From: Trypanosoma brucei
Taxonomy: Eukaryota
Direction: 5' to 3'
DNA length: 64,000 bases
NCBI GenBank assembly: GCA_000002445.1
Contig: CM000208.1
Span: 2,592,001 to 2,656,000, forward strand
The translations under genes were made by a program, and so were the position numbers. Positions 2,171 to 23,768 of this stretch are shown piece by piece. Position 1 is the first letter of the stretch. Each line of letters starts with the position of its first letter. The notes below the pieces were generated by a model. The model was not told the DNA's origin. It did no database searches and worked only from the letters and a program-made list of their open reading frames with translations.

Positions 2171-5100
2171 TTTATTTAAATCCTTTTTATTAAGTTGCTT
2201 GTTTGCTTTTTTAGTTGATGACTGAAAGAGAACAAATAGTTTTTATCCTTTTCGCGTTCAACCTGATTACCCGTTCTGTGTTCAAACAAAAGAAAAGATC
2301 AGGTTGAAAGTTTTTTCTGGTAACTTTTTCCCAACAAATAATGAATACTGCTTTTTCATGCCGTTTTTTCCATAATTGATATCACATGTGAGTAACTCTT
2401 AACTGTATATGTCACTCGAACGTCGGGGTTGCTTACCCTATGAATGTGCGCGCTCTGTCGCCGAGTGCCATCATTTTGCTGCTACGAGTAAGTTTCCAGT
2501 CAGACAACATTACGAAAGTACTGCTCCTTCTCTTTGACTCTAACGTTGAGGCTTCTTCACAGACCCTCGTCTAAAATATCGTACACCTGAAACTACCGCA
2601 TGGGTGACCATATATAATACGAGTGTACAGTTGGCGCAAGAAAGAAATTACCACATAAACGTATCTTATTTCGTAAGACGTCGTTCTTCATAGTAATTAC
2701 TTACATGTCAGCCTTGCCATGCGTCAAAAACTGTGCATCCAACTTCTGTCGTCAACTTACCTTGTAATAAGGGTACCAATACATTGTATCCTTGTACAAT
2801 AAGGCCACTAAGTGCAGACCCAAGACTCGAATATGAATAATAAGGGATGAACAGAGCCTACCTGAGTATACTGAGGAACAGTAGCCTTCTAGAAAATACC
2901 TAGGTTACCGTAAAGGTATCAGCACGGCACTTCTATATTGTTCAGTCCAAATATATACCCCTATGACGTTATCACATCAAAGACACGCCCGACGGGGCGC
3001 TACACAGGGTCATCGTACTCATCTTTGAAGAGTGCTAATAACGTAAGTGTAAGGCAATAAACACGCACTTCACAATTATTGCGTGTTTAAACCACCAGTA
3101 TTCCCCGGTGTTTTCCCCGCCCTTCGTTGCCAGTGAATTGAAAGCAATTGTACTGCGTGCTGTTCCTATATTAGTATGTCATTATTGGGATAAGATCTTC
3201 ATAACGAAATCCAAACAATAAGCATTAGTACTCCCAAAACAGCATGCCGAACAAATTGTTAAGGAACAGAAAAGGTCGCATAAATAGTTTTCGAAAAATA
3301 ACAACAGCAATGATATGAAGCGACGTTATCAGTTACGGTGTAAATCTGTCAGTAACAGCTCAAGTGACCCCCGATTACTTGTGCGACGTATCCAACGCCA
3401 ATACTACGGTAACGTAATAGCTAAAATTATTGTGTTCACAACTTTTTCCACCTTTAGATGTTGTACTTGAATGCTTTCAACAATACCGAATAAAAGTATT
3501 TTGAACAACAGAAAAACAGTATAGATAACCATGTCATCGGAAGAGAAGCAGCGATAATCAGTAACAAAATGGACTTGCGACTCCTAACAGAACACTGCGG
3601 CTGGTTAACGGATCCAGTAGTTAAATCAATGCGGGGTACAACAAAGATTTCTTCTAACCACTAACACGATTGTAATGAAAAATAAACAAAAATGTTTCCA
3701 ACGAAAGATGTGAAAAGGAAAAATTCTCAATACCTAATAGGACCATTGAAACACAAGCTCACCATCAAATTCCACGGACTCATAATTCTTAGCATCATTA
3801 GAAGTGATCGATTACACCGTGGACAGCCTGGCAAACATGAAGGGAAAACTGTCCTCCATTCCTTTGTTCTGCCAACCCCCACCTGCCCACAAATACGAAT
3901 ACAACAAAAACCATTAACCGCACACCTCACCGGCGCAACCCGTATGATTCTCGTTGTGAAGAAAACCATCTTCCGCCAAAACAAAGTAACCGATCCCCCG
4001 TGACGGCCGCAAATTACGGGACCGTTTTATCAACTAATCAACCTACGCTTTCAAACAAAACACTCGTAAACAGCAATCACCAAAGCAGGCACTAATATAT
4101 ATATATATATATAGACAGCATGACAGGAGGTTATTAAAATGGCATCACAGTCTCACGAAGCCCTTTTAAGGGAGTGGACAAAAATATACGCATTGTGAGC
4201 CCCCTTTGCCACTAGTAATCCCACACTGCTAAAAAAGTGGAAAACAGTTCGTCACGAGTTGGAGGGAAAGGGGAATTGTCCTTCCCACATGCGTAGCCTA
4301 TACCGGCGACAAAACAATGGGGAGGAAGCAATGTCAAGTTTGTTTAAAACATCCACGGGGGACGTTGTAGCACCCACCCTAAAGGGAATACTGGTAACTA
4401 TGATTTAAAAAAACTCAAGAAGCACCAAGCAGTCACTGGTCACATGTAAATAGTAAGTTCCTAACCTTTTACACCGTATGTCCTCAGCAACCCAATGTCC
4501 CTTTAACAACAGTAAGGTAGAGAAAATCAATAACCAGACAGCTATTTATCATTTTACTTTTGAAAAAATGTGGAGATATGATAATAAGTTCACCAAATGA
4601 TTTAACTATAATTGATATTCCAGATTATTTTTAAATTTGACTCCCAAAGACTCGACTACATGGAGACACATATGTGCAAACGGGCAAATTCCGGGAGATG
4701 CAAACTTCTGTATAAATTTTTGTGATGATTGCTGTAACAATGCTGATGTTCGATGCTTGTGCTATCTCCCTTCGTTCATTTCCAGAGCACAGATCGCAGA
4801 CGGAATGTTCCCTTTATAAACGATACGTTGGCACTACAAGGTACCACAATGGAACATCAACAGGATACTGGTAAAAAACGCAAACGAAAAACGAAAAGTC
4901 ACGGTGGTACGCCCTCCCGTACAAGGCAAACTGGTAGGGGCCTTGAGCAGCCGTTTATACCGTGTATTTGAACCCACAAGCGTACATTGCTAAAATATTA
5001 ACAAGATTAAGCGTCAATGCGGTGAAATCCAGAACCCCTCACAAAGTTGAACCCAGCACTGTCGTAAAGTCCATGCCCTTCAATAAGCATTCATATATTT

Positions 5101-8100
5101 CATGGGCCACAGGGGAGTTAGGACAACAGCAGTCGGCACACAGCAATCAAAGCACGGGCTGTGACAGTGAAGAGAGTGATATACCTGGTGGATCGCATAC
5201 CATCCATGCAAAACGTGGCCTAGGCACAGGAATACTAGACAAAATAAAGCAAAGTTATAAAACTTGCCGGAAGTAGCACAGTGATAATGACAGTACACTC
5301 TCGGGGAAAATATTCACACCAGACAATTTGAAAGCGAACTCCAAGCAACAATGTTCTCATTACATAGATATCAGGCTGCGGGGGTGACATACCGGCAACG
5401 CAATTTTAAAAAAATAGAACAGATGAAAAATATTTAACAAACGACAAAAAACATACAGAAAACAAGTTTCCTATTTTGAGAATTAATATATTTCCCGTTC
5501 AAAACACGCAAAGCCAATTCCGAAAATGGAGCGGCAAAAAAAAAAAATGGAAAATACCTCTCAGGTATCCGGAGCCAAACCACGGCATGTACTCAGTATG
5601 TAAGATGCGTAAATAGCTTTACACGATCGAAATTTGGCAATGCTGTTGTTTTGACTCTATGTAGAAGCGGTCATGTCACAGCAACGGTCAAAAATACTCC
5701 GCGAAACCGATGACCACCAGAACCTCTAAGTGGATTCTGGAAAACAAAAACAAAATCGCCGATTTAAAATAAAAGATGCCCTTTTCGAAATTTTGTTCTA
5801 AAGGCTGCCTGTATCGAGTGAACGGATTTTGTGGCGAGGCTCTTCCCCTTTAGCAGTTCCTTCATAAGCACTCGCGTAGCAAATATCTTAACAGTAGAAT
5901 AATAATGCGTTACCTTCAGAAAGCACAGAAATACTTCATTACCGGGCTCAGAAGGAGATTGCAATTCCACTGAAACCCTTTAGCGGATCCGTAACAAAGA
6001 ATTCGGCGTCTTCCCCTACAACCCCAAAAACGATAACGCAGCACGCCACTATAGTTGCACACCCCCAAAAGGAAGGAAATGACTCTTTCTCCCAAATGAA
6101 TAGGGGAACATGGCTTTACCGGTAATATGCTTCCGAAAATACGGCAAACCAGCATAGACATTTGCTGACACAACACCTCACACAAGGGTAGTCATATGCT
6201 GCGCACCAAAGTGTGCCCCTATGCCGCGACGTTTTAGAATCTTAATTCACTCCGTGCGCACTTCGGTAGCTCAATATTCCAGTGTTTACTCTAAAACAGA
6301 GCTAGCTTCTACAGCAAAGCCAGTCTCCCGTCAGACAGCAAGAAGCCAGAGCAATGCGTTGACGAGAAAACGATGCAAATTTCCTTACACCGACCGATAG
6401 TTTTTTTCGGTAGGATAAAAAAAACTGGTAATATTAAATGGTTCCAGCTTATATTAATGCAGCCCTTCCAAGGCCTTCTCCAACTAAAATATATACAGCC
6501 AATTCTCAAAAAATAGGAGAGGAAACGCAGTGACTCCGTTACTTAACTGCGTATCGAGACGGCTGCGTTGATGGTATCGACAAATGGGTTAACGAAAACC
6601 CCACCACGAGCAACGATCAGCACCGTTGTCACAAACGAAGAATAGCAAAACACATTCATATGAAGAAACCCACGTATCCCACCCGGAACATTTGTCGAGG
6701 GGCAGAGCAACGATAAAACCAACTGTTAGTGACGCCTTGTGTAAAGTGGTTTCGTCATTGTGTTGAAAACAATAAACAGTTGGAAGAAACCAGTATATGA
6801 GAGCGGTAACGCACTCACGACGTATCAGCTAAATAGGGAAATGACGATAAACGCAAGGTGATGGCGTTCTCTGCCGCCAACTAACCACAAACCGTTACGC
6901 TTAAGGGGGTGGGCGCACACATACACACACCTCAGCCAGTGAGGTAAACGGGAAATCACTACGTGACACAACGCCAATGAGAGAAAGGGGAATAAGCCCT
7001 GAGGTACAGCTCGCCACTCGCGGTGCACTCGAGGGCGCTGACTTAACACCACACAATCTTTGAAACCGCCTCCTCCTAGACTACAGGAAAGATACCGCGC
7101 ATACCGGTGGTACCAGCGCATAAATGTCCCCATATCACCAGCCACATAGTGACACGACTTTAAGGTTTGCTGAAAAATGCACCTAGCCAGCCTGACTGGG
7201 TGCTGTAATGAAAGTAACTAGGTAGCAATCTTTGCTGGAAATGAAATAGCACGCTCCTAGCAGACAGATGGAGAAAGCAAACAACATTATCCACAACATC
7301 GCAACCTTTCAACTTCCGCTCCGGCTCAGAAAAATGGTACCCTACATGCTTCGACATCAAAGGGCGAAACGACGTACGCCACGCGGCGCAGTCGGCAAGA
7401 GAATCTTTGGCGCTACCCCGCAGCCCCTCGCCACTCTGGAACCTTCGCAGCGCCGTGCTAAGTGGAAGTGCACTGGCAGGCCCCTTTCCCCCCTCTCGGG
7501 GATCAAGCACCAACAAGTGGAAGGAGGTCGGCAGCCCGCACTCCGCCCCCCACCCCTCTCCCTCGTGCAGGCACTTGGAACGCTTACTGAACTATGCCGT
7601 TGCCCTCCTGTTAAGAGTGGGGTGGTCTTTCAACCAATTCAACGTTCACCACCTTCCCACACCCCAGAGGGTATTAGGTGCGAAGATCAGCCGATACCAG
7701 CCGCGCCGCCAAGTGGCACACGTGTCAGCTATGTTTTCCGGACTGATTTCGTTCCTTTTGCGTTCGTTTTTGGTGTTTGACTCTTCGACTTGTAGAAAGG
7801 CCTCTTACGTAGCAGGATCCCTCCGCACACCCGGTGGTCGCGGAACACAGGCACAACGTCTCTGCCGCAGATCCCAAAGGCGATAATTTTCTGATTTATC
7901 ACTTTGTCAACGCGCCCTGTTTGTCTGCAAATGGACACGCACTCGTACCGACACTTTGAGCATCCCCCTAGTTCTCAGTACTATTTCCTCCGAGAAAGGA
8001 TAACTATGAATGCTTCTGCCGCGGTTAGTTTGTGGCTGGTCTCCACGTTGCTGGCCTTTGGCAAGGAGTGTTAGCCCCCTCTTGACCCAGCCACGAACCC

Positions 8101-9281
8101 ACAATGCACACCCTGCGCTAGGCTTGGTTATGCACCTACGCTTGCGTCGAAAGGACCCTTGTGTGCCACTGTGCGGGAGCTGTATGTTTCGTTGTTTGTG
8201 GCTTATCTACTCCTATGTTGTCTTTTGGCTGGGTCAATCCGCATTTGGATTGCATTGCTTTACCGTTAGTGACGGGGTCTTTCTTTGGCCGCATTTTCAT
8301 CCAAGAAAATCCGAATTTGACTGCATTTTCCTCCGCGAGACCCACTGAGCCATTTCTTTCAGTCAGAAAGAGTTTTTGACTACGGCGCTTCGTCAGCACG
8401 CGAAAGTTGACGCCACACCAGCCCTTTCCGCCCGTGGAACAAACAATGTGCGGACCCCACATCCCAGGGATGTTCCACCCGTTGTTCTTCGAATAATTGA
8501 GTGCCTCTGGACTCCGATTGTTCTGGCGCTACGGAGGGATCGGTCACCAAGTTGGCGCATGTCATTACTAAGTGGCGTATGGGATGGTGTTGCCTCGGCG
8601 TTCCCTCGTCGGCTCCACCGGCTGCTGAGTGGCAAGGCTGAACTACGGCCCGCCTGCTAACTTTGCGGGCCGATCTTATCAAGTATGCCCATTTCGAAGC
8701 GTTTCTCTTGCCGCCTTCGGGAATCGAGCAGAGTCATATGAAGGCGTCCGCACCTGCGCTGCGGGGTGGTTCCGTTCAGCATTTGTTTGTGGGGACACTT
8801 ATCCTCTTTTCCATTTCGGCCACCTCTTCCCCCGTAGAGAGGGACTGCTGGCGACGTCCTGCCCGACGTCCTGCCCGACGTCCTGCACCCCATCGTTTCA
8901 CTTCTAATAATAGTTACAAAAGTGTGTGTCTGTACGGCAGTGCATATTTCTCCAGTCCCCAATCGCTTCGGTTGCTTTTACTCTTCTGAAGCACGGTTCA
9001 GAGGCGGTTGCTCAGTGCACTTCCATGGAAATAGCGCGCACAGACAGGATATCAGTTGTTTGTCTGAGCTGACGCGGGCATGAAACAGTATCATGCGGTG
9101 CCTTTTGACGGTAGTGACCAAATGTGTCAAGGCCAGCCTCGGGGAATCGTTTTGCTGTTCCTGTTGTGGCTCCTACTTTCCGTGGGGAGGGTAAGCGGAA
9201 GCGAACGTGTCAGTTCAAGGAATTGGAGAAGGTGCACTGTTACGCGGACAAATTCACGTCCGGGAATACTCCAACTAACAA

Positions 9282-9381
<100 letters not shown>

Positions 9382-11415
9382 CTAACCCTTTTTCCCCCTG
9401 CCATGTGCCACACTGACAAAAGGGAGGGAGGGGAACTGTTAAACGGCAACCTTGACTAGGTTTAAGCCCCGAATTTCGCGTCGCCTATTCGCTACGCGCG
9501 ACTACTGTGTGTGTTAGAATTATCGTATTCTTTGTTCATTAATTACTTTTTTTTTTCTGCCTGTGTGTAGAGGATTTTTCGTGCGTTATGAGGGACGGTT
9601 CAGTGAAATGCACTTTCGATTGTTCTGTCGTCGCCGACATTTTTGTCTTCATCGGTGAGGTGTTTTTACCTAATTGGTTGCCCTACTGGTTCCTATATAA
9701 TGCGATGCCGCCCATGAAATATTGTGCTCTTTTCATATTTTTTTAACGTTAATCTTTTGCGACCTTTGCGAAGAACAAGAGCAACTTCTAATGGTAAACA
9801 GAACGATTCCACAACAAAGAAAAGGAAATACAAATAGGCGTAAAAGTTTGATTTCTGTAAGAGAACCAAAAAAAAACACAGAAAGAAAAGGGTGTAAAAA
9901 CAACTGATGTAAGAAAGAGAGAGAAATCTGCAGCAAGTACTGAGGGGGGTAATGGGGGAAAAAACGGAGACGACGCGCCGGCATTTCGAACCTCCTTTGA
10001 GTTTGCGGTTGCTTACGTGTGTGTGTGTGTGTCCCGTTTGCCTACACTCCCCGCCCCCGGGTGCGTAAATAAGGCGACCCCCCCCCCGTCCCTACATCAG
10101 CGAACTGCGCAGGAAGAACCCATGTATATACTTCTCCTCCTTACTGGTTGTGGATGAAAGGATCGTCACCTCTCAGGTTTGCATTGCGCAAGATCGTACC
10201 AGCTTGACGCCTTTCCGAGTGTGCATTGCATGTGCCAAATTACCCTTACGGTGCGGACCGTCGCGTTTGGGGCGAGATTCCTGTAGGCGTCTTGTGAAAA
10301 AGCTGGCCCCGTCCAAGTGTTCGACGGCGCGTCCCGTAATACGACAAATGTGAACAGAAGGGAAGGCTACCGGTAGTGGCCGGGTTCGTGAACCATTAGG
10401 AGTCGTTCCTGAAAATGGCGCGCCAGCGCAGCAACCCATTCACTAGAGGTTTGGATGAATGAAGAACTCTACCTGTACAGGGGTTGTGGATTTAGTGTGT
10501 GACAACATAACTCTCCAACGGCAGTTGACACATAAAACTCAGTTCCTCGTAAATGGCAGCTGCGCAAGGTGCTCCCCTTAATTCGCCGCTTGTGTGATGC
10601 GCTTTGCGGCATCAAACCAATAATGGGGGGAAATGTATTTTCCGTCCTGTATATGGACCCGTTTTTAAGTAAGGATGAACTTTTTAAGGTGCGAAACACC
10701 GGCGTAAATTTCCTCTCTATGACTCCAACATCCTCCAAGCTTCCTCGGATCACTTGGTGTGGGAGCATGGCCCCTAACCTCTTTGCAAAGCTCGGCCAAA
10801 ATGTATGGCCTTGCGTTGCTTCATCTCCGGATGATTCGTGTAAAAAGAAATCTGCGTGTCTTCTATAGGGTTGAAATCAGTTAATCTCCTTGATTCGTGT
10901 CCAGGCGTACGTGTGTGTGTGTGGATTAAAAGCGGCTGTTCATGCGTATGCTTTTTCTTTTTCAAATTAAGGAAGAAAGGGGAAGACATTTTTTAAAACC
11001 ACGCGGAGAAGCGGTGAAATACTAGAAAAAGGCTCCTCCGTTCCACAAAAGTTTGTTGCATATTTTAATGCAATCAGAAAACTGGTGTATCAGTGGTGTG
11101 GAAATCAACCATCAGCATTCCAAACCAAAGATCCGCATCCTTGCAAGTTGTGGTGCCGATTTTGACGCAGCATTCCATCGGACTGCCTTTTTTCTTTTCC
11201 TAACGCACCACTTACCAATTTCCAAAGGTAAAAAAACCACAAAAAATCAAATGGCTGCTAAAAGGGCTTTAACTCCGACTTGTTTGCTTTATCGTGGCAA
11301 AACACGAACAAGCAACACGGTGTCAGTCATCGGAAAGGTGTTGCCAGCGACGGCGCCACTCCGACAGAAACGAAGCAGTAGCGGCTCGTTAGGCAGAGAC
11401 GCTCTGGCGCTCGGT

Positions 11416-11488
11416 TCCTCCCTGGCGCAGTCGGCAGCGCGTTAGGCTGTTAACCTACAGGTCGTTGGTTCGAATCCAACGGGAGGAG
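11416..11488 (+). tRNA. tRNA-Asn (anticodon GTT)
   Basis: Cloverleaf folded by hand: acceptor tcctccc/gggagga, D arm gcgc-agtcggca-gcgc, anticodon arm ttagg-cTGTTaa-cctac, T arm gttgg-ttcgaat-ccaac. Followed by tcttttt. Confidence 0.85.
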
Positions 11489-11565
11489 TCTTTTTGCTGC
11501 CCACCTCCGAAAATTCTGGAGGTCACTTTCGCTATAAAGGAAGAACTGAAGCTGTTGCAAAAACA

Positions 11566-11637
11566 GTGGACGAGTAGGGGTTTGAACCCTAGGCCTCCTG
11601 TATGCAAAACAGGCGCTCTACCACTGAGCTACACGCC
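11566..11637 (-). tRNA. tRNA-Ala (anticodon TGC)
   Basis: Minus-strand sequence gggcgtgtagctcagtggtagagcgcctgttttgcatacaggaggcctagggttcaaacccctactcgtcca. It has the G3:U70 alanine identity pair, anticodon loop ttTGCat and T loop ttcaaac. A T-run follows on the minus strand. Confidence 0.85.
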
Positions 11638-11740
11638 CTTCAACACGGCTAAATCCGTAATATCACATGAGGTTGTTTAGCAACCGTTGTGTACCATCAC
11701 GTAAAGTGGTGTGCTGTGATTGGCGAGAGGGCGTGGCGGT

Positions 11741-11813
11741 GCTCCAGTGGCCTAATGGATATGGCTTTGGACTTCTAATCCAAAGGTTGCGGGTTCGAGT
11801 CCCGTCTGGAGTA
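11741..11813 (+). tRNA. tRNA-Arg (anticodon TCT)
   Basis: gctccag acceptor paired with ctggagt, D loop aatggata, anticodon arm ttgga-ctTCTaa-tccaa, T arm gcggg-ttcgagt-cccgt. Followed by cgttttc. Confidence 0.85.
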
Positions 11814-11862
11814 CGTTTTCGTGTCCAAAATTATTTCATATTTGTTCGTTTCTAGTTGTTTG

Positions 11863-11934
11863 CCGGAGAGCAGCCTTCCTAGCTCAGTGGTAGAGCGCAC
11901 GGCTTTTAACCGTGTGGTCGTGGGTTCGATCCCC
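11863..11934 (+). tRNA. tRNA-Lys (anticodon TTT)
   Basis: gccttcc/ggaaggc acceptor, gctc-agtggta-gagc D arm, cacgg-ctTTTaa-ccgtg anticodon arm, gtggg-ttcgatc-cccac T arm. Followed by cttttc. Confidence 0.88.
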
Positions 11935-12029
11935 ACGGAAGGCGCTTTTCTACACTGCCGCTTAAGCTAATTTCTTTGCTGGGTACGACATGTAAGCGTT
12001 AGAGGCTTGCTTGGAGGAGGGTTGGCGGT

Positions 12030-12102
12030 GCCCCCGTAGCCCAATGGATAAGGCGTTCGCTTCCTAAGCGAAAGATTGCGGGTTCGAGTCCCGCCGGAGG
12101 TA
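12030..12102 (+). tRNA. tRNA-Arg (anticodon CCT)
   Basis: Acceptor gcccccg/cggaggt with one mismatch, D loop aatggata, perfect 5-bp anticodon stem ttcgc/gcgaa with loop ttCCTaa, T arm gcggg-ttcgagt-cccgc. Followed by gttttcc. Confidence 0.75.
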
Positions 12103-14332
12103 GTTTTCCGGTGCAAAAACTTGCGGATATATGAGATGGTCGCGCGAACGTGGCAGAAGCCGCAGCGGCGTTTGGATTTGGCGGGTCCTTTTTGCGGTGA
12201 ATGCTTGCGGGTTCATAAAACATCCGCGTTGAACCCCGTTTACGCGTGTCGAGGCCGGGGCATACAAATATGACGCCACTTCTTTGGCGCGGCTCCTCGA
12301 GGCTTGGTTGGTTACGCAAGCTCCCAAGCCCGCGGCGATTCGTTGGAAATTTGAGGAGAGGCCCCGATGTGTTCGGCGCTGGCGTTGAGGCCATTGCGAC
12401 GGAAGCTCTACCGGATTTTTGTGTTAAAGGCGCCACAAGTCCGCAAAACCCACTTCACCCTCTGTCGATGCGTTGTTGCGCCAACCAGGGTGGCACAGGG
12501 TGGAGTGGGGGGGGGGGGGGAGAAAAAGATAACCTGTTTTTCGGCGTGTGGCCACACAGTCATGGAGTTTCTTGTACTCAAGCCACGCTTTGCCTTATGA
12601 ATTCTTTCTTTAGGCCCTTGGTTTGTACGATGTCCACTGGCAGGGACAGGGGTTGAAGAAGTCACAACCATAGGAGATGACGACGGTTATTATCATTATT
12701 ATTATTATTTTTTTTTTTTGCGGGGGGCTTTGAAGCGCAGAGACACACACCAATGAGCACGTGTATGCGGTTTCCCCCAAAACTTTCCCCATCCGAGTGT
12801 GTTGCTCCGACGGATTGCCTTACATTACTGAAATTCACGACCGTAAGGGTGAGTCCCAGCCGGCTTCAGCGGCCGCACTGGGGGAGGGGGGAGAGATTAA
12901 GTTGGTCGGGTTTTCTCTTTCCACGCCATCGGCAAACAGCAAAATGGGCAACAGGGGTTAGGATACTCTGCAGAGACGGATCGTACGGGAAAGAGGGGGG
13001 TGACACATTTGCCTTCTAATTCAACACTTGACAATGGCTACGGGAAATTGGGACCATTTTGATCCTCTTGTTCCGCCGAACAACAAAACCAGAAATAACT
13101 ACCCGTTGCCACCTTCAGCGGCTACATATATATATATATTTATGTAAATTTATATGAAGCACACACCGCAGCAACCGGGGCTGTGCCGCTCGGTTGCCCA
13201 TCCACTTTTTTGTGCGTGGGCAACTGGGAAATGGAAGGGAAGGGAGGGGAAGGGTGATGTGTGGAGGAGAGCTCAGGGGATGCCATTCCTTCATCCATCA
13301 AGGGGACTGATGTAATATTTGAAAATGTTACGCGAACCTTCCCACGGCTGCCTCCTAACCTTCCGCCACGTTCTCATCTGCCATAGGCAAATGAAGGTTG
13401 CGGAGCCAAACGAGCGGGGCAGTGCCCTTTACGTAGTCTTTTATCTTGAGCAGACGGAACCGGAGGACGGGAAGGGAACCGTTACACGCGGGACGCGTAG
13501 TTGTGTGCCACAGGCCGTCATTGCCGTTGATATCATCTGCTCCATCTCGGCCATTCCATGTCTAGCCATCAGAGACGACCCCGACCCTCTCTCCACGCGC
13601 TTCTCACTTGCGAGACAAATGACACCGTTTCAAGCTTCTTAGCTATTCACATGGTTCCGATACAGGGGTGCCGAGCCGACTCTCCTCCTCTTTCCGCCGT
13701 GGCCCAAGTTTCGTATCACTTCCATCGAAGTACATGGGTTCGCACTTCGGCCTCGCGTGGATAAATGCCTCTCTCGTCTTAAAAAAAAAAAGAATTGCTT
13801 TGTTTCCTCTCCCCGCGGAAGCGAATATGGGGTGTCCCTTGCTTCGTCATGCAACCTCCTTGACAGGCGGCGGTTCTTTCAAGCTTTACTCTTCGCAAGG
13901 GGGAAAACGTACATGATGATATGATCATTCAAGGACGCAAGAAAAAAGGGGACACCCACACATATACGTATATATACATATTTTTGTACATGTGTCAGCG
14001 CATCTGCATATCATGTCTTGTGGTAAAAACGATGTGCTACAGCTGTTGGGCCTTCCCTGCGAGGAGGAAGTGTACGCTCGTAATTTCAACCCCTCATTTG
14101 TCTACTGAGCACGCACTCATGAGAGGAATGGAAGGAAAGGGGGGGGGGGGGAAAGTAAAACTATGAGGCGCACGGCACATACACGCAGGAGTAGAAATAA
14201 CGGCCACACGTTTATGCTTGACGTCGTCACTGCGACAATACCGTCAGCTTTGGGCCAGCAGAAAAACAACACTCCTTCACCACGCGTGTCCACTTTAACC
14301 GCGGCAAAAAAAGTTCTGCACCTGTTGATGGG

Positions 14333-16045
14333 TTAACGAGGTGATGAAAAGTGCCTCAGAAGTTCTCTTAGTTGCTCAGAACGTACGGCGTCGTGCGTGT
14401 AACGCTGGAGGTCTCCTAAGATCTTTGCAAGCACCTCATCGCGAGTCCTTCCTGACCATCCCCAATTGTCGTATTGCCTCCGGAGCTCCGAATCCTTGAG
14501 AAACCGAAACGCAATTGATTCCCCCAACTCGCCCTCTTCACTGCCCCCTTCCAATGGCGTGACGCCTTCGCCCCTCATGTCGGAGTCTTGTACATCACTT
14601 CCCACTGCTTCTGGGGTTGCCAACAACTCACCTTCATCCAAAAATCTTTCTTTGGGGGCACACGGGCTCTTCTTCCCTTCTTCCTCATCCTCATCCTTCC
14701 ACTTCGCACCATCGGAGAAACTTACATCGACAACCGGCGAATGCTTCTGCAGCGCAAGTCGCACAAGATGCAAAACACTCTGCTTGTTTTTCGTCTTCAA
14801 AGTGTTCACCTCAGCGGACTGATATCTTTTCGGTTGGTACTGCATCACGTTTCCACCATAGAAAAGATTATATTCTTGAAAAAGTTCGTGGCGACAGAGA
14901 TCTCCACAGGTGGGACGCTGCTGAGGGAAAAAGGCAAGGCAGCTGGATATCAAATCAATCCATTTCTGCTGCCGATCCCGCGTTGTGTGCAATCGCCACT
15001 GCTCGTTCATCATTCCAACCAATCGTGAGGGACGTGGAGCGCTCCGGAGGAGATAATTTTGAGCGTTTCCCACAGGCATGAATCTTCGTATATCATCATG
15101 GCTAGGTGTCCCAACAATGTTAAGAATCACTTCTAGTTGTGTGCTAGCAAGTTGTCCATCCCACACCCCTTGTTCATTAAGGGCGGATTCAACATTAAAC
15201 AAAGCTTTCCCTGTAACCATTTCGAAAAGGATGCAACCCACCGACCACACATCAATCGACGGCTCCCCTCCCGAGACATTGGTAACGATCTCAGGTGGCC
15301 TGTAATAGCGCGTGCAGACATAAAAGGTGTCACTTGCTTGGGCGTCCCGTGCAAGGCCAAAATCGGCTATGAGCGCCGTTGATTTGTATGGATCTTTACC
15401 ATGCAAACGAACCAAAATATTTTCTGGCTTTATATCTCTGTGGACGATATTACACTTGTGCAAAAAATCCAAACCAAAACATATCTGAAATGCAAAAACA
15501 ACAGTGACCAGCTCAATGAATTCATCTGTCATGGCCGGTTTACTGCCTGAAGATGATACGTGCTTTATAAAATAGAGCAAGTCACCCTTCATCAGAGGCA
15601 TCACTATATGGAGACTAAATTCGTCCTCTCCGCTCAAGCGATTCACCATAGAAAGGACTTTATCATGGTATTTGGAAAGCTCGTCATTGCGGCTTTGATT
15701 AGGGTATTGAGGCCCTGCGGCGTCGAAGCGGCGGGCGTCCACCAGTGTCGTTGCCCCGTCCCTACCACCTTCATCCTGAGAGAGCACGTTGTCAGCACCG
15801 CTTGGGGTCGCAAACATGTCAAAGTACCCAATCACGTGAGGATGAGCGTCATGGAGGAAAGACATTATATCTATCTCTCTAACGAGGCGGGCGCTTTCCT
15901 GGTTTACAAAGCGCGAAGGGATTGTCTTCACGGCAACATGTTCTCCTGTGAAACGATCTACGTGCTCGCTCACAATACCGAATCCACCCTTGCCAACGAC
16001 CGCAACGTGCTCATACCGCCAAGCGAGTAACGGGACATTGTGCAT
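14333..16045 (-). CDS. Serine/threonine protein kinase, CMGC-like, with a long insert between the N-lobe and the catalytic loop.
   Basis: 570-aa ORF containing GKGGFGIV (Gly loop), VAVK, HRDIKPENILV, DFGLAR, TRYYRPPE (close to the GSK3/CMGC SRYYRAPE motif) and DVWSVGCIL. Confidence 0.8.
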   Translation of the reverse strand: MHNVPLLAWRYEHVAVVGKGGFGIVSEHVDRFTGEHVAVKTIPSRFVNQESARLVREIDIMSFLHDAHPHVIGYFDMFATPSGADNVLSQDEGGRDGATTLVDARRFDAAGPQYPNQSRNDELSKYHDKVLSMVNRLSGEDEFSLHIVMPLMKGDLLYFIKHVSSSGSKPAMTDEFIELVTVVFAFQICFGLDFLHKCNIVHRDIKPENILVRLHGKDPYKSTALIADFGLARDAQASDTFYVCTRYYRPPEIVTNVSGGEPSIDVWSVGCILFEMVTGKALFNVESALNEQGVWDGQLASTQLEVILNIVGTPSHDDIRRFMPVGNAQNYLLRSAPRPSRLVGMMNEQWRLHTTRDRQQKWIDLISSCLAFFPQQRPTCGDLCRHELFQEYNLFYGGNVMQYQPKRYQSAEVNTLKTKNKQSVLHLVRLALQKHSPVVDVSFSDGAKWKDEDEEEGKKSPCAPKERFLDEGELLATPEAVGSDVQDSDMRGEGVTPLEGGSEEGELGESIAFRFLKDSELRRQYDNWGWSGRTRDEVLAKILGDLQRYTHDAVRSEQLRELLRHFSSPR

Positions 16046-16388
16046 GACGCTTTTTACTACCTCTCCTTTTTAGATGTTCTCTGACCTTTTGTGCGCGGTT
16101 ATCGTTACACATGTATGAAACGCGATGCCCCCACCTCAAACGCACCCTCACGCGCACAGTGAGCAGGTGTGCGTGTGAAAGAGGAGAGGGGTTGGGAAAG
16201 AGAGCGGTTTACGAACCAATGCCGCGGGTGTTGTAGCGTTGAAGTAACACCATATATCAATGAGGGGTCTGGGTGTAGCACACATACCTCGTTTTTTGTG
16301 CTCTTTATTCATTTCGTTAGTTACGTTGGCTCAGTTTGATTTCCCTTTTCCTTTCTTTACCAGAACCACACGGACCTTCCTTCGCCTT

Positions 16389-18443
16389 TTAACCATCGTT
16401 AGCCTTCTCCTCCTTGTCTTTCTTCACCTTCTTCACTTTCTTCCTTTTGTCGAGGAGTGCGAATGCAGCGTCCAACTCAGCTAGCTGCCTTTGACGGGTT
16501 TCTTCCTCCTTTTCCTTCTTTAGTGCAGCAACATCTTTTCCAGCACCTTCTCGGGCGAGGCGGCTGTTCAGCTGCTTCTCTTCCGTCGCTATATGTCGTT
16601 CCTTTAGCATTTTCTTCTCCTGCTCCTCAAACTCCCTGCGCACTTTATTCTTATAGTCGTTGAGTGACCCGTTAAACGGACGGACATTCTGGTTACCCGC
16701 TTCCCATATCTGCATATCTGTCTCTTCAATCAAACGCGCGTCGTGAGTAACAACCAGAACCCCTCCTTTAAAGTTTTTAATTGCATGACAAAGGGCTTCA
16801 ATGGATTCCACATCCAAGTGGTTCGTCGGCTCATCAAAAAGGAGGAAGTGAGGTTTCTCAGCGCTAATTGCAGCTAACGCTACTCGTGCCTTCTGCCCAC
16901 CGCTTAGTGTTGCAATCTGGTTCTTGTGCACGATACCTTCCAGGCCAAAGCTTCCAAGCTGGCGTCGCGCCTTGTCCTCCTCGCGGATTCCAAGGGACTG
17001 AATGAATTCCACCGATGTCTTTTCCAGGGGCAACTTGTCAACGAAGTGTTGATTGTACCGACCAATGCGGACTTTTCGATTCATCGTGATAATACCCTCC
17101 GTGGGCTCCAATTGCCCCGTCAAGAGGCTCAGCAGTGTACTTTTTCCGATGCCATTGGGGCCGCAAAGTGTTATACGGCTGTCGGCCCAAAGTGCACAAC
17201 TAACCTTGTGGAAGAGAACCGGACCTCCAGGATAGTTAAACGAGACATCCTCTAGCTTTACTATGTAACCATCTGGCAGTTCCGGCGGCTCGGAAAAGGG
17301 GAAGTTGACGATATAGTCGCGGCGTTTCTCCAAATATATTGGGTCCAGGCGGCCGGTGCGCACTTGGTCTTTAATCCACTCATCCACCTGAGCATTCGAC
17401 ATGCCATTGCGCTTTTTCTCGTTGATGGTCTTGTTGAACGTTGCATACTTCTTGTCGATCTCTTGGTGTCTTTGGCGCAGTTGTTCGTCGAAGCCACTGA
17501 AACCGCCACGGTAATAGTTCAGTTGGTAGTTTTCAACGTGAACCATGTGCGTGCACACCTCATCCAGGAAGCCTGCATCGTGCGAGACAACAACCAGAGT
17601 CTTTGGTCTCCGCGCCTTTTCATTATACTGCTCACAGAGGTATGACTCCAACCAAATGACGGCGTTTAAATCCAAATGGTTTGTCGGTTCGTCCAACATG
17701 AGCACATCGGGCTCAATGAAGACGGCGGCCGCCAGGGCAATGCGCTTGCGCCAGCCACCGCTAAAGCTGCTCGTTGGACGCTCATGCCACTCCGTAGGGA
17801 AGCCCAACCCAAACAGAATACGCCTGGCACGGGCCTCGGCCTGTGCAGCACCCATTATATCCAGCTCTTCCTCTAAGAAGTTCAGGCGCTCCATCTCTTC
17901 ATGGGAGAGTTCCGTCTTTTCATGAAGTTGGGCTGCCTCACTTGCAAACTCTCTTTGCTTTTTGTGGCTTTGAAGAACAGCCTGGACGGCGCTCACCTCG
18001 GACTCATGAAATTCTTGTTCCTGCTCCACGAGTAACAGCTCCAAATTTGACTGCACAGGGAGCTCCCTTGAACTTAGTAGCCTAAGAATAGTAGACTTAC
18101 CACGGCCGTTCGGCCCCATCAACCCGTACCGTGCGCCCGCCGACAACCGCACTTGTGTGTCCTTGAAGAGAACTTTCCCGTTAACAGACACGGCAACACG
18201 CTGTAAGGAAATGTCACGAGACCCCTCAGTCCCCTTGTCGTGTTCCCATGTCACCGAAAAGGGATTGTCACCATCCTTATTAACGCAGTTTGCTTGCTCT
18301 CGCAGCTGCCGCTGTTCTTCTAGTAGCTTTTCAGTCCTCTCTTGCTTTTTGCGGTCCTTCCGAGAAAGAACTGAAACCTTCACATCACTATCACCCAAGA
18401 CATTGGCATCTCCCACACATCCAGCAGTACTAAGCGAAGACAT
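16389..18443 (-). CDS. ABC-F family ATPase: two nucleotide-binding domains, no transmembrane domain, lysine-rich C-terminal tail.
   Basis: 684-aa ORF with two Walker A boxes (GPNGRGKST, GPNGIGKST), two ABC signatures (LSGGWRKR, LSGGQKAR) and two Walker B boxes (LMLDEPTNHLD, LLFDEPTNHLD). No hydrophobic segments. Confidence 0.85.
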   Translation of the reverse strand: MSSLSTAGCVGDANVLGDSDVKVSVLSRKDRKKQERTEKLLEEQRQLREQANCVNKDGDNPFSVTWEHDKGTEGSRDISLQRVAVSVNGKVLFKDTQVRLSAGARYGLMGPNGRGKSTILRLLSSRELPVQSNLELLLVEQEQEFHESEVSAVQAVLQSHKKQREFASEAAQLHEKTELSHEEMERLNFLEEELDIMGAAQAEARARRILFGLGFPTEWHERPTSSFSGGWRKRIALAAAVFIEPDVLMLDEPTNHLDLNAVIWLESYLCEQYNEKARRPKTLVVVSHDAGFLDEVCTHMVHVENYQLNYYRGGFSGFDEQLRQRHQEIDKKYATFNKTINEKKRNGMSNAQVDEWIKDQVRTGRLDPIYLEKRRDYIVNFPFSEPPELPDGYIVKLEDVSFNYPGGPVLFHKVSCALWADSRITLCGPNGIGKSTLLSLLTGQLEPTEGIITMNRKVRIGRYNQHFVDKLPLEKTSVEFIQSLGIREEDKARRQLGSFGLEGIVHKNQIATLSGGQKARVALAAISAEKPHFLLFDEPTNHLDVESIEALCHAIKNFKGGVLVVTHDARLIEETDMQIWEAGNQNVRPFNGSLNDYKNKVRREFEEQEKKMLKERHIATEEKQLNSRLAREGAGKDVAALKKEKEEETRQRQLAELDAAFALLDKRKKVKKVKKDKEEKANDG

Positions 18444-18490
18444 TATCCTTCAATATTACCTCGCAACAAGTTCAAACAAACAGACAAAAA

Positions 18491-18624
18491 ATGAATCAGT
18501 TTCAGTAAAAGAAATGAAACAGGCGGGCAGGAAGGGAAAGGAACGTGAGGTGGAGTCGGTTTTCGAATGCCGTACCACGTTTTTCCATCCCCCATGCCTC
18601 GTCTCCTCACATTCATATGTGACA
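18491..18624. repeat. 134-bp intergenic element, downstream copy of a direct repeat that brackets the HSP83 unit.
   Basis: tgaatcagtttcagtaaaagaaatgaaacaggcgggcaggaagggaaaggaacgtgaggtggagtcgg...cattcatatgtgacac is about 97% identical to 21250..21383. Confidence 0.9.
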
Positions 18625-18642
18625 CAGGACATCTGCAATGAT

Positions 18643-18700
18643 ATGAAGATTAATAATAATAATAATAATAACAATAATAATAATAATAACAATAGCGGTG
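18643..18700. repeat. (AAT)n / (AAC) trinucleotide microsatellite in the HSP83 3' flank.
   Basis: aataataataataataacaataataat... seen directly. Confidence 0.9.
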
Positions 18701-18998
18701 ATGATAATTGTAAATATACACACACACACACATATATATATATATTTACTCATACCTCTCCGTGTAAAAAACAATTAATAATCACTGTTAGAAACGACAG
18801 TAGGAAAACGAGAAAACAAAACAAAAACAAAACACCCTAACTTTCCGCTTTCTCACCCTCACATACTTTCTCAAATGGAAAGGACAGAGGAATCCGTCTG
18901 CGCGTGAGGGAGAGAAAAAAAAAAGAGAGGGGGAGAGTGAAAACACGAAACGAAAAACGTCAGATCATATAGGTGAATGTGTATCACACGGCTGCCCA

Positions 18999-21113
18999 TC
19001 AGTCCACTTCCTCCATACCCGACGCACCAGTACTGGAGTTGGCGGCAGCAGCGGCAACGGGTGCCTGCGCTTCCTCCTCTTCCGCATCATCGTCGAGTGA
19101 GAGACCCAATTTGATCATGCGGTGGATACGGTCAGCGTATGCCGTGGGGTCATCAAGTGTAAACCCGGATGTCAGCAGCGAGGTGTCGAAGAGGAGGAAT
19201 ATCAGGTCCTTGGCGGCCTTGTCGTTTTCGTCGGCCTCCACGCGTCGTTTCAGCTCCTTGACGATGGCGTGCGTGGTGTTGATCTCCATGGTCTTCTTCG
19301 ACATCATGTACGCAGACATGCTGGAGTCTCGCAGAGCCTGGTTGCGCATGATCTGTTCCATGTGTGCACTCCACCCGAACTCTGATGTCACGAGAATGCA
19401 TGGTGATGTTGCCAACCGGTCGGACACCACCACCTTCTCCACTTTGTCACCAAGTACCTCTTTCATTGCCTTGCACAGCCGCTCGTATGATGCCTTCTCT
19501 TCTTCCCGCTGTTTCTTCTCTTCCTCCGTCTCCTCGAAGTGTACACCCTCCTTTGTGAGGCACGCGAACTTTTTGTCCTCAAAGTCCTTCACTTGCTGCA
19601 TCACATACTCGTCGATGGGGTCAGTCATGAAAAGTACCTCCATGCCGCGGCGCTTCGCCTGCTCGATGAACGGAGACGTTTCGAGCTTCTTCTTGCTGTC
19701 ACCCGTCACATAGTAGATGCACTTCTGACCATCCTTCATGCGTGTCACGTAGTCCTTCAATGTCGTCATCTCCTCACCGGATTCCGAACTGTGGAAGCGC
19801 AGCAGTTCCATCAGCTTCTTGCGGTTTGTGCTGTCTTCGTGGATGCCCAGCTTCACGTTCTTGCTGAACTGTTCGTAGAACTTCTTGTAGTCCTCCTTGT
19901 TCTCTGCGAGCTCCTCGAAGAGCTCCAGGGCCTTCTTCACAATATTCTTACGGATCACCTTGAGGATTTTGTTCTGCTGCAGGTTCTCACGGGAGATATT
20001 TAGTGGCAGGTCCTCGCTGTCCACCACACCGCGCAGGAAGCCGAGCCACTCGGGGCACAGGTCCTCACAGTTGTCCATGATGAACACGCGGCGGACGTAT
20101 AGCTTGATGTTGTTGCGCTTCTTGTTTGGTTCGAACATGTCAAAGGGTGCGCGCTTCGGGAGAAATAAGATAGCCCGGAACTCCAGCTGGCCCTCCACGG
20201 AGAAGTGCTTCGTAGACAGCTGCTCTTCCCAGTCGTTCGAGATGGCCTTGTAGAAGGAGGCGTACTCCTCCTTTGTTACATCTTTCGGGTCGCGCGTCCA
20301 CAGTGGCTTGTGCTTGTTCTGCACCACAAACTCCTGCTTCACTTCCTTCACCTTTTTGGTTTTCTTTTTCTTGGCATCGGCATCATCGCCGTCCTTCACC
20401 TCTTCCACCTTTGGCTCCTCACCTTCCTCAGCCTTTTTGGCGGCCTCTTCGTCTTCGTCTTCATCTGTCACCTCCTTCTCAGTGGTGTTCTCCACCATTA
20501 ACTCGATGTCGTAGCCGATAAATTCGGAGTGTTTTTTGATGAGGTCCTTCAGCCGCCGCTCCTCCAGGTATTCCTGCTGGTCTTCCTTCAAATGCAAGAC
20601 GATACGCGTACCGCGCTTCAGGTCACAGTCGGGCGTGGAGGTTACAGTGAAGGTACCACCTGCAGAGGATTCCCACGTGTAGGCATCGTCCTCGTTGTTC
20701 TTCGACACAACGGTTACGCGGTCTGCGACAAGGTAGGCAGAGTAAAATCCGACGCCGAACTGCCCGATCATGCTCATATCGCCACCGGCCTCCAATGCCT
20801 CCATGAATGACTTGGTACCGGAGCGAGCAATCGTACCAAGGTTGTTCACCAGGTCGGCTTTCGTCATACCGATGCCACTGTCCTCCACCGTCAGTGTCTT
20901 ATTTACTCGGTCGGGGATTACGCGAATGCGCAAATGGGGTTCATCTCCGAGCACGGACTGGTTCGTCAGACTCTGGTACCGGATTTTGTCGCACGCATCT
21001 GACGAATTACTAATTAGCTCGCGAAGAAAAATTTCCTTGTTTGAATAGAAGGTATTAATAATAAGGGACATTAGCTGATTGATTTCAGCCTGGAATGCGA
21101 ATGTCTCCGTCAT
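18999..21113 (-). CDS. HSP83: Heat shock protein 83 (HSP90 family), full length, 704 aa.
   Basis: N-terminal ATPase signature ...[15 protein letters not shown]..., GTIARSGT, the charged linker, and C-terminal MEEVD (the TPR-binding tail). The length matches trypanosomatid HSP83. Confidence 0.97.
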
Positions 21114-21249
21114 CTTGGCCGTTTATATGTTATCTCTCTGTATGTGCGGGTGTCGTATAACAAGTGCTTATTTTTATCTACACTATACCTGGTTATTCAA
21201 CGAAATTTCACCGCAGTTAGTGACAGAAACGCGAAGAATAGGGCATTTG

Positions 21250-21383
21250 ATGAATCAGTTTCAGTAAAAGAAATGAAACAGGCGGGCAGGAAGGGAAAGG
21301 AACGTGAGGTGGAGTCGGTCTTCGAATGCCGTACCACGTTTTTCCATCCTCCATGCCTCGTCTCCTCACATTCATATGTGACA
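21250..21383. repeat. 134-bp intergenic element, upstream copy of the direct repeat bracketing HSP83. The spacing to the other copy is about 2.76 kb.
   Basis: Near-identical to 18491..18624, with three substitutions. Confidence 0.9.
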
Positions 21384-22016
21384 CCGAACAATTTTTACTT
21401 TTTTTGTTCCTTTTTTTTTTTAAGGTACACTTGTATAAACGGTTTATTATTTTTTTTATGTTAAGTTTCTTTTACGTTTATTTTTGTTGTAGTTCTAATT
21501 AAGTGTGAAGTGTGGAAGGAAGTGTCGTGAGTTTTTTTTTTACTTCGTATCGTTGTTCCTTTTTTTTCCCCCCTGTTGTGGTGTTTTGTTTCATAATCTT
21601 GTTCCTTTAAGGAGAAAGGAAGATGAGGAGGATATCAACGGTACTCATTGTGTACATTTGTTGTTTCTTTTGTATTTGTAATACCAACAATTTTCTTTCG
21701 TTATTTTTCCTTTTTTTTTCTCGTTGTTCATTACCTGCTTTTTTTGTATTTCGTTGTCGAGTTATATATATGTATGTTTTGTGTTAACGTGTAAAATACA
21801 TAAATGGTTGTGTACACGCACACTAGCATTGATATATTAACCGAATAAAGTGTACAATAAACGAGATGGAAGATACTAAAGAAGGGGGGGGGGAGAAATG
21901 ACAGGATTTCTGCTCAATTGCGACAAACGAATAGCGTGGTAGCATTGCTAATTGCTCTCCTGCAGATCGTTTGTGCTTACGATACAAGTAAATTACACTA
22001 AAAATAAGAACCTTTG

Positions 22017-23768
22017 CTACCGCAACTCGTCTTCAAGGAGCGAGACTGGCGGGGGTGTAGAGCATTCTGCACGCTGAGGTGACACACTCGGCCAAAATAC
22101 GCGCCAAAACTTTAGCAGCTCGTCTTGTGCCGTACATATTCTTTGCATATCAGGTGCGATGGTTGGACACGTAATGTCTGAACTAGTGTTGGGCGAACCA
22201 AGAGCTCCAATTAAGTGAAGGTTACTACTTTGGCGCAGCTGAATTTGGCCCTTCCCGCGGTGGGTGGTTGCCAGCTCACCAACATCTGGTGGAGCCACAA
22301 TTCCGCTTATGGGGTGCATAGTGTTTATTGCCCGTGTGATAAAGTGGCAACCACCTGTGAACCCTTCATCTTCGGTCCTCGGCGCCGAAGGAACATTTGT
22401 GGTTGGTGCATTTGTGTCGACATAACACATCATGCCATCCTGGCCACCCGTGTACATCTTGCTACGCTTGTCGGGGTCCCAGTGTATGGCTGTTACGGGC
22501 CCGCTGTGGACACTGTCAAAGACATATCGGGGACAGTTCGCGCGTCGTGCATCCCAGACACGCACCGCACCATTTGCGTACCCAGCGGCTAAATAAAAAG
22601 GTTCTTTGGTGCAATAGTTCAAGGATGCAACGCCGTTAGCATGGCCCTCGTAAACTGATATCAGTGCATTTTTGGTTCGTAGGTCAAATACGTACACCCC
22701 ACCGGTCCCAGAATTTAACCCAACGGAGAGCAGCGGGCCGTTCGCTGCAATGTACGATGGCCGCGCTTTGCCGGAGAGACACGTCTGTAACGTACGAAGA
22801 AAACCCACTTGGTGACAATCATAAATGGCAACAGGTCCTTCGTCAAGCGCAAGCGCGACACAGGTGCACCCATCCAGCCAATGCACCGCACGAATTGTCG
22901 CATGCTCCTCTAGGCAAACAATTTGGGAAGCCTTCGCGGTTTCGGCATCCCATCCGTGAAGACCGTTTTTCAGCCCTATGATGAGCTTGTTATTGGTACC
23001 CCAATGCAGCAGCTGCGATACATCTGAAGGAAATTCCGGAGCGTCCAGCGTACGCTCGGGAGTGGTAAACATCACCCGCTGCGTCGGAGCCTTGCCGGGT
23101 TTTATCTTTTTCAGCAGCATTGCTCTTCCAGTCGGTGCATGAGCGAACAATGGGGCGACAGCCGTTCTAGTTGAGTTTGTGTTCGCAGAATACTCGCAGT
23201 GTTTGGGACCATCATCCTCTGTTGGGCTGACGGAGCCAGAGATTGTACGACCCCCGCCACTGCTCGCCAAGTTCGGGGCCACAAGACTACGAAGTGAGTC
23301 TGCGTTGTTAAAGCCCAACACCTCACCACCAATTTTGCGTTGCTTTTGCGTGCTTTCGCTGCTCAGCTGTTCGGCGAGCACTTCGTTGTACATGGAAGTC
23401 ACGTACGACGAGTCATCTGACACAATGGACTCGGAGAAGTGGCTGGAAAACGAAGCTCCAGCAGAATGAGGAAGTGACAACACTCCGCTGGCACCCACTC
23501 CTGGGCTGAGCACAAGGGGTGGAGTTGGCGATGTTGTTAGGTTGTACGCAGATACCACCATGTCCATCCCTTCACGCTGCGGTATGTGTCTTGATAAACG
23601 CACCGGTGGGGTTTCGTCTTCCACTGGCGACCGACTCATCATCCGTGGGTTGTTGGTCGACAATTTCTGAAGTGGAGTACTGCTGCAAAGTTGCGCATGC
23701 CTTTTGGACCGGAATTCTGAAGCTGTTGAATCATATTCTGCCTGCGCCCAATGTCTCATTACCTTCAC
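22017..23768 (-). CDS. WD40-repeat protein, CDC20/Fizzy-like APC/C co-activator candidate.
   Basis: 583-aa ORF. The block RTLDAPEFPSDVSQLLHWGTNNKLIIGLKNGLHGWDAETAK parallels the CDC20 RxLDAPE...NLLDWS..LAVAL...VYLW signature. After it come WD repeats (GHANGVASLNY..., VRVWDARR, HSGPVTAIHWDPD, TGGQDGMMCYVD). Confidence 0.55.
   Translation of the reverse strand: MKVMRHWAQAEYDSTASEFRSKRHAQLCSSTPLQKLSTNNPRMMSRSPVEDETPPVRLSRHIPQREGMDMVVSAYNLTTSPTPPLVLSPGVGASGVLSLPHSAGASFSSHFSESIVSDDSSYVTSMYNEVLAEQLSSESTQKQRKIGGEVLGFNNADSLRSLVAPNLASSGGGRTISGSVSPTEDDGPKHCEYSANTNSTRTAVAPLFAHAPTGRAMLLKKIKPGKAPTQRVMFTTPERTLDAPEFPSDVSQLLHWGTNNKLIIGLKNGLHGWDAETAKASQIVCLEEHATIRAVHWLDGCTCVALALDEGPVAIYDCHQVGFLRTLQTCLSGKARPSYIAANGPLLSVGLNSGTGGVYVFDLRTKNALISVYEGHANGVASLNYCTKEPFYLAAGYANGAVRVWDARRANCPRYVFDSVHSGPVTAIHWDPDKRSKMYTGGQDGMMCYVDTNAPTTNVPSAPRTEDEGFTGGCHFITRAINTMHPISGIVAPPDVGELATTHRGKGQIQLRQSSNLHLIGALGSPNTSSDITCPTIAPDMQRICTAQDELLKFWRVFWPSVSPQRAECSTPPPVSLLEDELR

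Follow-up and report, generated by a model that had tools for sequence, protein, structure and literature searches.

A duplicated spacer element marks the ends of the HSP83 tandem array, very probably collapsed to a single unit, in the Trypanosoma brucei TREU927 v4 assembly

HSP83, the gene for cytosolic HSP90 in Trypanosoma brucei, is reportedly organised as a tandem array of units placed head to tail, an arrangement said to have been described by Mottram, Murphy and Agabian in 1989. Such arrays may be collapsed in genome assemblies, and the number of assembled units can be arbitrary (Jackson, 2007; Jackson et al, 2010; PMC1855330; PMC2854126). HSP83 was flagged in 2008 as a tandem gene that had nevertheless not been annotated as one (PMC2217535), and ten HSP83 genes, Tb927.10.10890-10980, have been published for strain TREU927 (PMC9538636; PMC3616968). 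Published work already documents the array, the length of its unit and the fact that the early TREU927 annotation lacked it.

Here we describe this locus as it appears in a 64-kb stretch of DNA (the window) that represents positions 2,592,001-2,656,000 of TREU927 chromosome 10 in GenBank/GeneDB v4, so that a window coordinate plus 2,592,000 gives the Tb927_10_v4 coordinate. The window agrees with the known array in the gene itself (100% protein match), in its position between ABCF3 and a WD40 gene, and in unit length, and its spacer is nearly the same as that of the sister subspecies. However, it holds one unit and a 141-nt terminal partial unit, not ten. We consider it highly probable that the window is the v4 assembly of TREU927 with the HSP83 array collapsed to one unit, in which a short shared element (S) is both a spacer piece found at the array ends and a module for RNA processing.

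The HSP83 locus and its direct repeat

All genes of the region lie on the minus strand. The upstream neighbour of HSP83 encodes a WD40-repeat protein (22017..23759; 580 aa; Tb10.26.1070, EAN78480.1; exact protein match), and its major poly(A) site has been mapped to v4 position 2613569 (window 21569), giving a 3'UTR of 448 nt (Kolev et al, 2010, Table S13). The single assembled HSP83 coding sequence (18999..21113; Tb10.26.1080, EAN78479.1, XP_823307.1) specifies a 704-aa product with the Pfam domains HATPase_c and HSP90, identical to TREU927 HSP83 (EAN78479.1). It is preceded by an HSP83-specific 5' flank of 136 nt (21114..21249) and followed by a 3'UTR of 385 nt, counted to the published major poly(A) site (18614..18998). 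Further downstream lie an ABCF3-specific leader of 47 nt (18444..18490), identical in T. b. equiperdum and T. b. gambiense, then ABCF3 (16389..18443; 684 aa; Tb927.10.10880, Tb10.329.0040, EAN78478.1, XP_823306.1) and a protein kinase gene (14333-16045; exact match to EAN78477). The MSH2 and photolyase of the window are also exact matches to TREU927 proteins (EAN78483 and EAN78491). Accessions EAN78478, EAN78479 and EAN78480 are consecutive, and the deposited annotation therefore places a single HSP83, and no more, between ABCF and WD40. Indeed, Kolev et al (2010) placed HSP83 as a single gene, Tb10.26.1080, at Tb927_10_v4 2613113..2610999, which is the window coding sequence plus 2,592,000.

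Several features elsewhere in the window were noted. Five tRNA genes (Asn-GTT, Ala-TGC, Arg-TCT, Lys-TTT and Arg-CCT) occupy 11415-12103, just past the last gene of the minus-strand polycistron; a search of the window against Rfam gave no hits besides these tRNAs, and none at the HSP83 locus. No open reading frame of at least 200 aa was present in 1-14332. This ORF-poor left part with its tRNA cluster may represent a region where transcription terminates or switches strand; it also carries a perfect (CA)48 microsatellite (9283-9379) and a 33-nt tandem repeat (1961-2154; 5.9 copies, 97% identity). To the other side of HSP83, a very large repetitive coding region on the minus strand (39857-47138) comprises two open reading frames, 39857-42094 and 42189-47138, in which an 87-nt unit is repeated about 41 times (39898-43619) and a 57-nt unit about 38 times (43613-45767). 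These repeats are also prone to mis-assembly, and the long plus-strand open reading frames over the same interval are probably mirror artefacts.

The original prediction was of one HSP83 gene bracketed by a 134-bp direct repeat with a spacing of about 2.76 kb, and this repeat is real. A repeat search of the 64-kb window recovered two copies of S in direct orientation, copy A at 18491-18631 and copy B at 21250-21390, each 141 nt long, which share 97% identity and are separated by 2759 bp from start to start, enclosing one HSP83 gene. Their uninterrupted core spans 135 nt (18491-18625 versus 21250-21384) with 2 mismatches. Copy B lies upstream of HSP83, with 136 nt between it and the ATG. Copy A lies upstream of ABCF3, 47 nt from its ATG, and is separated from the HSP83 stop codon by 367 nt if the 141-nt version is taken, or about 374 nt for the 134-nt version. 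The distances given originally, including one of 375 nt from the stop, were correct to within a few extendable bases.

A pair of this kind might be thought to represent a chance match, or else a dispersed or mobile repeat with no tie to any array. The small size of S is the one point in favour of this idea. Against it, 100 dinucleotide-preserving shuffles of the window yielded no match with up to three mismatches allowed, and blastn searches with the element and with the whole 2.9-kb unit found neither a third copy of S nor a further HSP83 fragment in the 64-kb window, so that just two copies are present in 64 kb. Furthermore, the spacing of the copies equals the array period of other assemblies, and the window flanks rebuild a real interior spacer (below). 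Together with the array boundaries shared between assemblies, these results rule out both a chance repeat and a mobile element, and we give such explanations practically no credence.

Array architecture and the collapse of HSP83 units

In T. b. equiperdum (CM010681.1) the locus comprises WD40, five HSP83 copies, ABCF and the kinase, with a gene-to-gene distance of 2758-2768 bp, and in T. b. gambiense DAL972 there are three HSP83 copies, a gap of 100 Ns falling between the second and third, and the gene-to-gene distance is 2781 bp. The order WD40-HSP83-ABCF3-kinase is common to the window, these two genomes, T. vivax and T. rangeli. We joined the window 3' flank (367 nt), S (141 nt) and the 5' flank (136 nt) into a predicted spacer of 644 nt and aligned it to real ones. 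This chimeric spacer aligned end to end with five interior HSP83-HSP83 spacers of 643-666 nt (four from equiperdum, one from gambiense), the differences in length being confined to poly-T, TA/TG and ATT microsatellites. In its 5' flank, the window gene was nearly identical (2 substitutions) to every equiperdum and gambiense copy, and the two substitutions that separate the window copies of S recur elsewhere as polymorphisms between units, one of them in the gambiense H1-H2 spacer. Both array boundaries, upstream of the first copy and upstream of ABCF, were the same in the window, equiperdum and gambiense.

Because the spacer aligns in this way and the boundaries are shared, the locus can be written as WD40 - S - [5' flank - HSP83 - 3'UTR - S]n - ABCF3, with n = 1 in the window. 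The two S elements are the first and last occurrence of one piece of the HSP83 intergenic spacer: copy B (21250..21390, minus strand) is the upstream boundary of the array, where homology to the interior spacers starts, and copy A (18491..18631, minus strand) is a terminal partial unit at the downstream end. The pair marks the two ends of the known T. brucei HSP83 tandem array. The view of the repeat as the footprint of an array is thus well supported, by the full-length match of the chimeric spacer to real ones, by the shared boundaries and by the agreement of 2759 bp with 2758-2768 and 2781 bp.

Several head-to-tail copies with a constant unit of about 2.8 kb are found in equiperdum and gambiense but not in the window, where there is one gene and the 2759-bp periodicity remains as the S bracket. 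The window has the form left by a collapse, with one unit between the unique sequences of both array ends and the overlap duplicated; the lack of multiple copies would be a property of the assembly and not of the locus. In this process the assembler would have merged all n of the head-to-tail units of about 2.76 kb in TREU927 into one.

It could instead be argued that the record is correct and that the sequenced TREU927 clone truly had a single copy, its array having contracted by recombination between units to the minimum of S-gene-S. Such a structure is the smallest state that unequal exchange can reach in an array of this type, copy number does vary among assemblies (5; 3 plus a gap; 2), and the window is free of N runs, including at the HSP83 locus, where there is no gap. 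However, the current TriTrypDB reference, made for the same strain, has the ten copies listed above where v4 has the single Tb10.26.1080, and a specialist had pointed to the missing array annotation in 2008. HSP83 mRNA is also among the most abundant transcripts, at about 133 per cell, which is in the range of ribosomal protein mRNAs, compared with about 6 for ABCF3 (Kolev et al, 2010).

The locus is, moreover, often under-assembled, as in the gambiense sequence with its N gap. In T. equiperdum OVI, a 2612-bp orphan contig (CZPT02000866.1) begins within S, 32 nt from its end, and contains one HSP83 unit without unique flanks, the typical collapsed-repeat signature of a short-read assembly. In T. 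rangeli (MKGL01000147.1, 8786-13153), N gaps at 9254-9278 and 12527-12888 fall inside the array, and an N-terminal HSP83 fragment (8981-9253) abuts a C-terminal one, the whole being annotated as one full gene and a 111-aa ORF; this is another under-assembled array. Taken together, these observations make a genuine contraction in the sequenced clone very unlikely. Since ten copies have been published for the strain and the unannotated array had been remarked upon in 2008, collapse is far more likely than a true single copy, a conclusion strongly supported by the published copy numbers and the assemblies of the sister subspecies. Of the two outcomes that the original prediction had set out, an assembly collapse is therefore the one favoured.

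RNA-processing signals within the shared element

In trypanosomes, the polypyrimidine tracts of intergenic regions direct trans-splicing downstream and thereby position the poly(A) site upstream. Each copy of S contains a pyrimidine tract of 37 nt (copy A, 18507-18543; copy B, 21266-21302). For HSP83, published mapping puts the major poly(A) site at v4 2610614 (window 18614), giving the 385-nt 3'UTR, and the 3'-most site at window 18557 (Kolev et al, 2010). Both sites fall inside copy A, 14-107 nt upstream of its tract (71-107 nt for the major site). Just upstream of S, the 3'UTR of HSP83 contains an (AUU)n run (18652-18693), a binding element for ZC3H11 that is also present in other chaperone mRNAs (Droll et al, 2013; PMC3616968), and it also contains a (TA)n(TG)n microsatellite (18719-18744).

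We suggest that S acts as the core of the spacer for RNA processing. According to the published mapping, the HSP83 poly(A) sites lie in its 5' part. The polypyrimidine tract of its 3' part would direct trans-splicing of the next gene and, through the coupling described for trypanosomes, also position these poly(A) sites. With one more S closing the array, the 3'-end context of the last HSP83 copy is that of the interior copies.

From the pyrimidine tract to the end of S there is no AG. In front of HSP83, the first AG beyond the tract is at 21190/21189, which predicts a 5'UTR of 75 nt. Before ABCF3, the first AG is at 18461/18460, within the 47 ABCF-specific nucleotides, which predicts a 5'UTR of 16 nt; the ABCF3 leader also has a second short pyrimidine run (18474-18491), the first base of which is the last base of S. 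One published splice value was recovered, a 5'-most SL site for HSP83 at window 21229 (Kolev et al, 2010). That position is not preceded by AG. The genomic TTTCTGTCACTAAC starting at 21229 resembles GTTTCTGTACTATATTG, which we take to be the interior of the spliced leader, and the site at 21229 may be a mapping artefact and not a real acceptor.

These positions bear on the proposal, made in the original prediction, that the HSP83 unit supplies the trans-splicing and 5'UTR signals of ABCF. The first part holds in that the polypyrimidine tract lies in S, but the AG at 18461/18460 and the predicted 16-nt 5'UTR lie outside it; since both fall in the ABCF-specific nucleotides, a 5'UTR derived from the HSP83 unit is not supported. 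ABCF3 would instead use an HSP83-type tract in combination with its own AG and a short 5'UTR. On sequence grounds, it probably borrows the tract and neither the acceptor, itself a prediction, nor the 5'UTR.

One might ask whether the additional, terminal S has been kept by selection, such that it preserves the poly(A) context of the last HSP83 copy and places ABCF3 under an HSP83-type tract, with its processing coupled to that of a heat-shock gene. We regard this as unlikely. If it were true, processing of the mRNA for ABCF3, a GCN20-like ABCF, could for example stay efficient when heat impairs trans-splicing. In T. rangeli, HSP83 spacer sequence with its pyrimidine tract is also found directly upstream of ABCF, and in one array study ABCF3 mRNA was up 2.2-fold after DTT for 1 h.

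Origin of the bracket and relation to known systems

Copies of the HSP83 coding sequence differ by 0-7 nt of 2115. The window copy differs by 4-7 nt of 2115 from those of the equiperdum and gambiense arrays, and by 1 nt from that of T. equiperdum OVI. In both arrays it is a terminal copy that diverges most: equi5 in equiperdum, with two private amino-acid changes, and gamb1 in gambiense. Divergence of terminal copies is expected under concerted evolution, in which unequal crossing-over and gene conversion would keep the array homogeneous and leave the copies at its edges to diverge most.

Beyond marking the edge, the bracket could have given rise to the array if S flanked a single ancestral HSP83 gene before amplification and seeded the array by non-allelic homologous recombination. 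This idea concerns the origin of the array and is compatible with its collapse in the assembly. In its favour, the periodic region amounts to n x 2759 + 141 nt and not to a whole number of units, and T. vivax has the same pattern (2 x 2629 + 313 nt). In addition, a simple tandem duplication predicts two S elements per interior spacer (508 + 277 = 785 nt), and the actual spacer has one in 644 nt. However, the window has no further S, and blastn detected no homologue of it in the spacers of T. vivax or T. rangeli. The ends of the T. rangeli array share no element, the left boundary lying at spacer position 405 and the right at 372, and the same end state would result from truncation of the terminal unit or from gene conversion spreading upstream of ABCF3. 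On balance, we find seeding by S possible but rather doubtful.

The comparison also led us to reject a shared element at the array ends as a general rule: T. brucei has one of 141 nt and T. vivax one of 313 nt, but T. rangeli has none. Three further observations were made in T. vivax. On contig SOPI01000221.1 (968-22115), full and partial HSP83 sequences are interspersed with long ORFs, which carry reverse-transcriptase and endonuclease domains and resemble non-LTR retrotransposons; from this layout, T. vivax HSP83 is therefore also present outside the syntenic array, or else the array has been invaded by retroelements. On SOPI01000560.1 (15237-19860), about 2.65 kb of unannotated sequence separates the array end from ABCF, and this spacer contains an inverted repeat (15285-15444 and 15924-16090). 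ABCF itself lies at 17893-19860 of the same contig (76% identity over 664 aa by tblastn) and is not called as a gene in the annotation.

The finding is correct but ordinary, and its value is practical, not conceptual. Users of the GenBank/RefSeq record of TREU927 chromosome 10, or of v4, encounter a single HSP83 gene, although the strain has about ten. This would put copy number, per-gene normalisation of RNA-seq and proteomic data, CRISPR or RNAi design, and knockout strategy out by an order of magnitude at HSP83. T. rangeli, T. equiperdum OVI and T. b. gambiense show under-assembly of the same kind. The bracket, that is one unit with a spacer piece duplicated at both unique flanks, offers a useful flag for collapsed arrays that can be read from sequence alone.

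A close parallel is provided by the HSP70 genes of TREU927, which are collapsed to Tb927.11.11330. Like HSP83, they form a near-identical multi-copy heat-shock array at a single locus, and specialists have acknowledged the artefact. HSP83 differs in that the later v5 reference put the collapse right, whereas the GenBank/RefSeq protein set, with its single EAN/XP accession, still has it. With respect to RNA processing, the layout is that of coupled polyadenylation and trans-splicing in trypanosomatids generally, with poly(A) sites followed by a pyrimidine tract and then an AG. What is particular to the HSP83 array is the probable use of one and the same tract by HSP83 in the interior and by ABCF3 at the end; otherwise there is no difference in kind.
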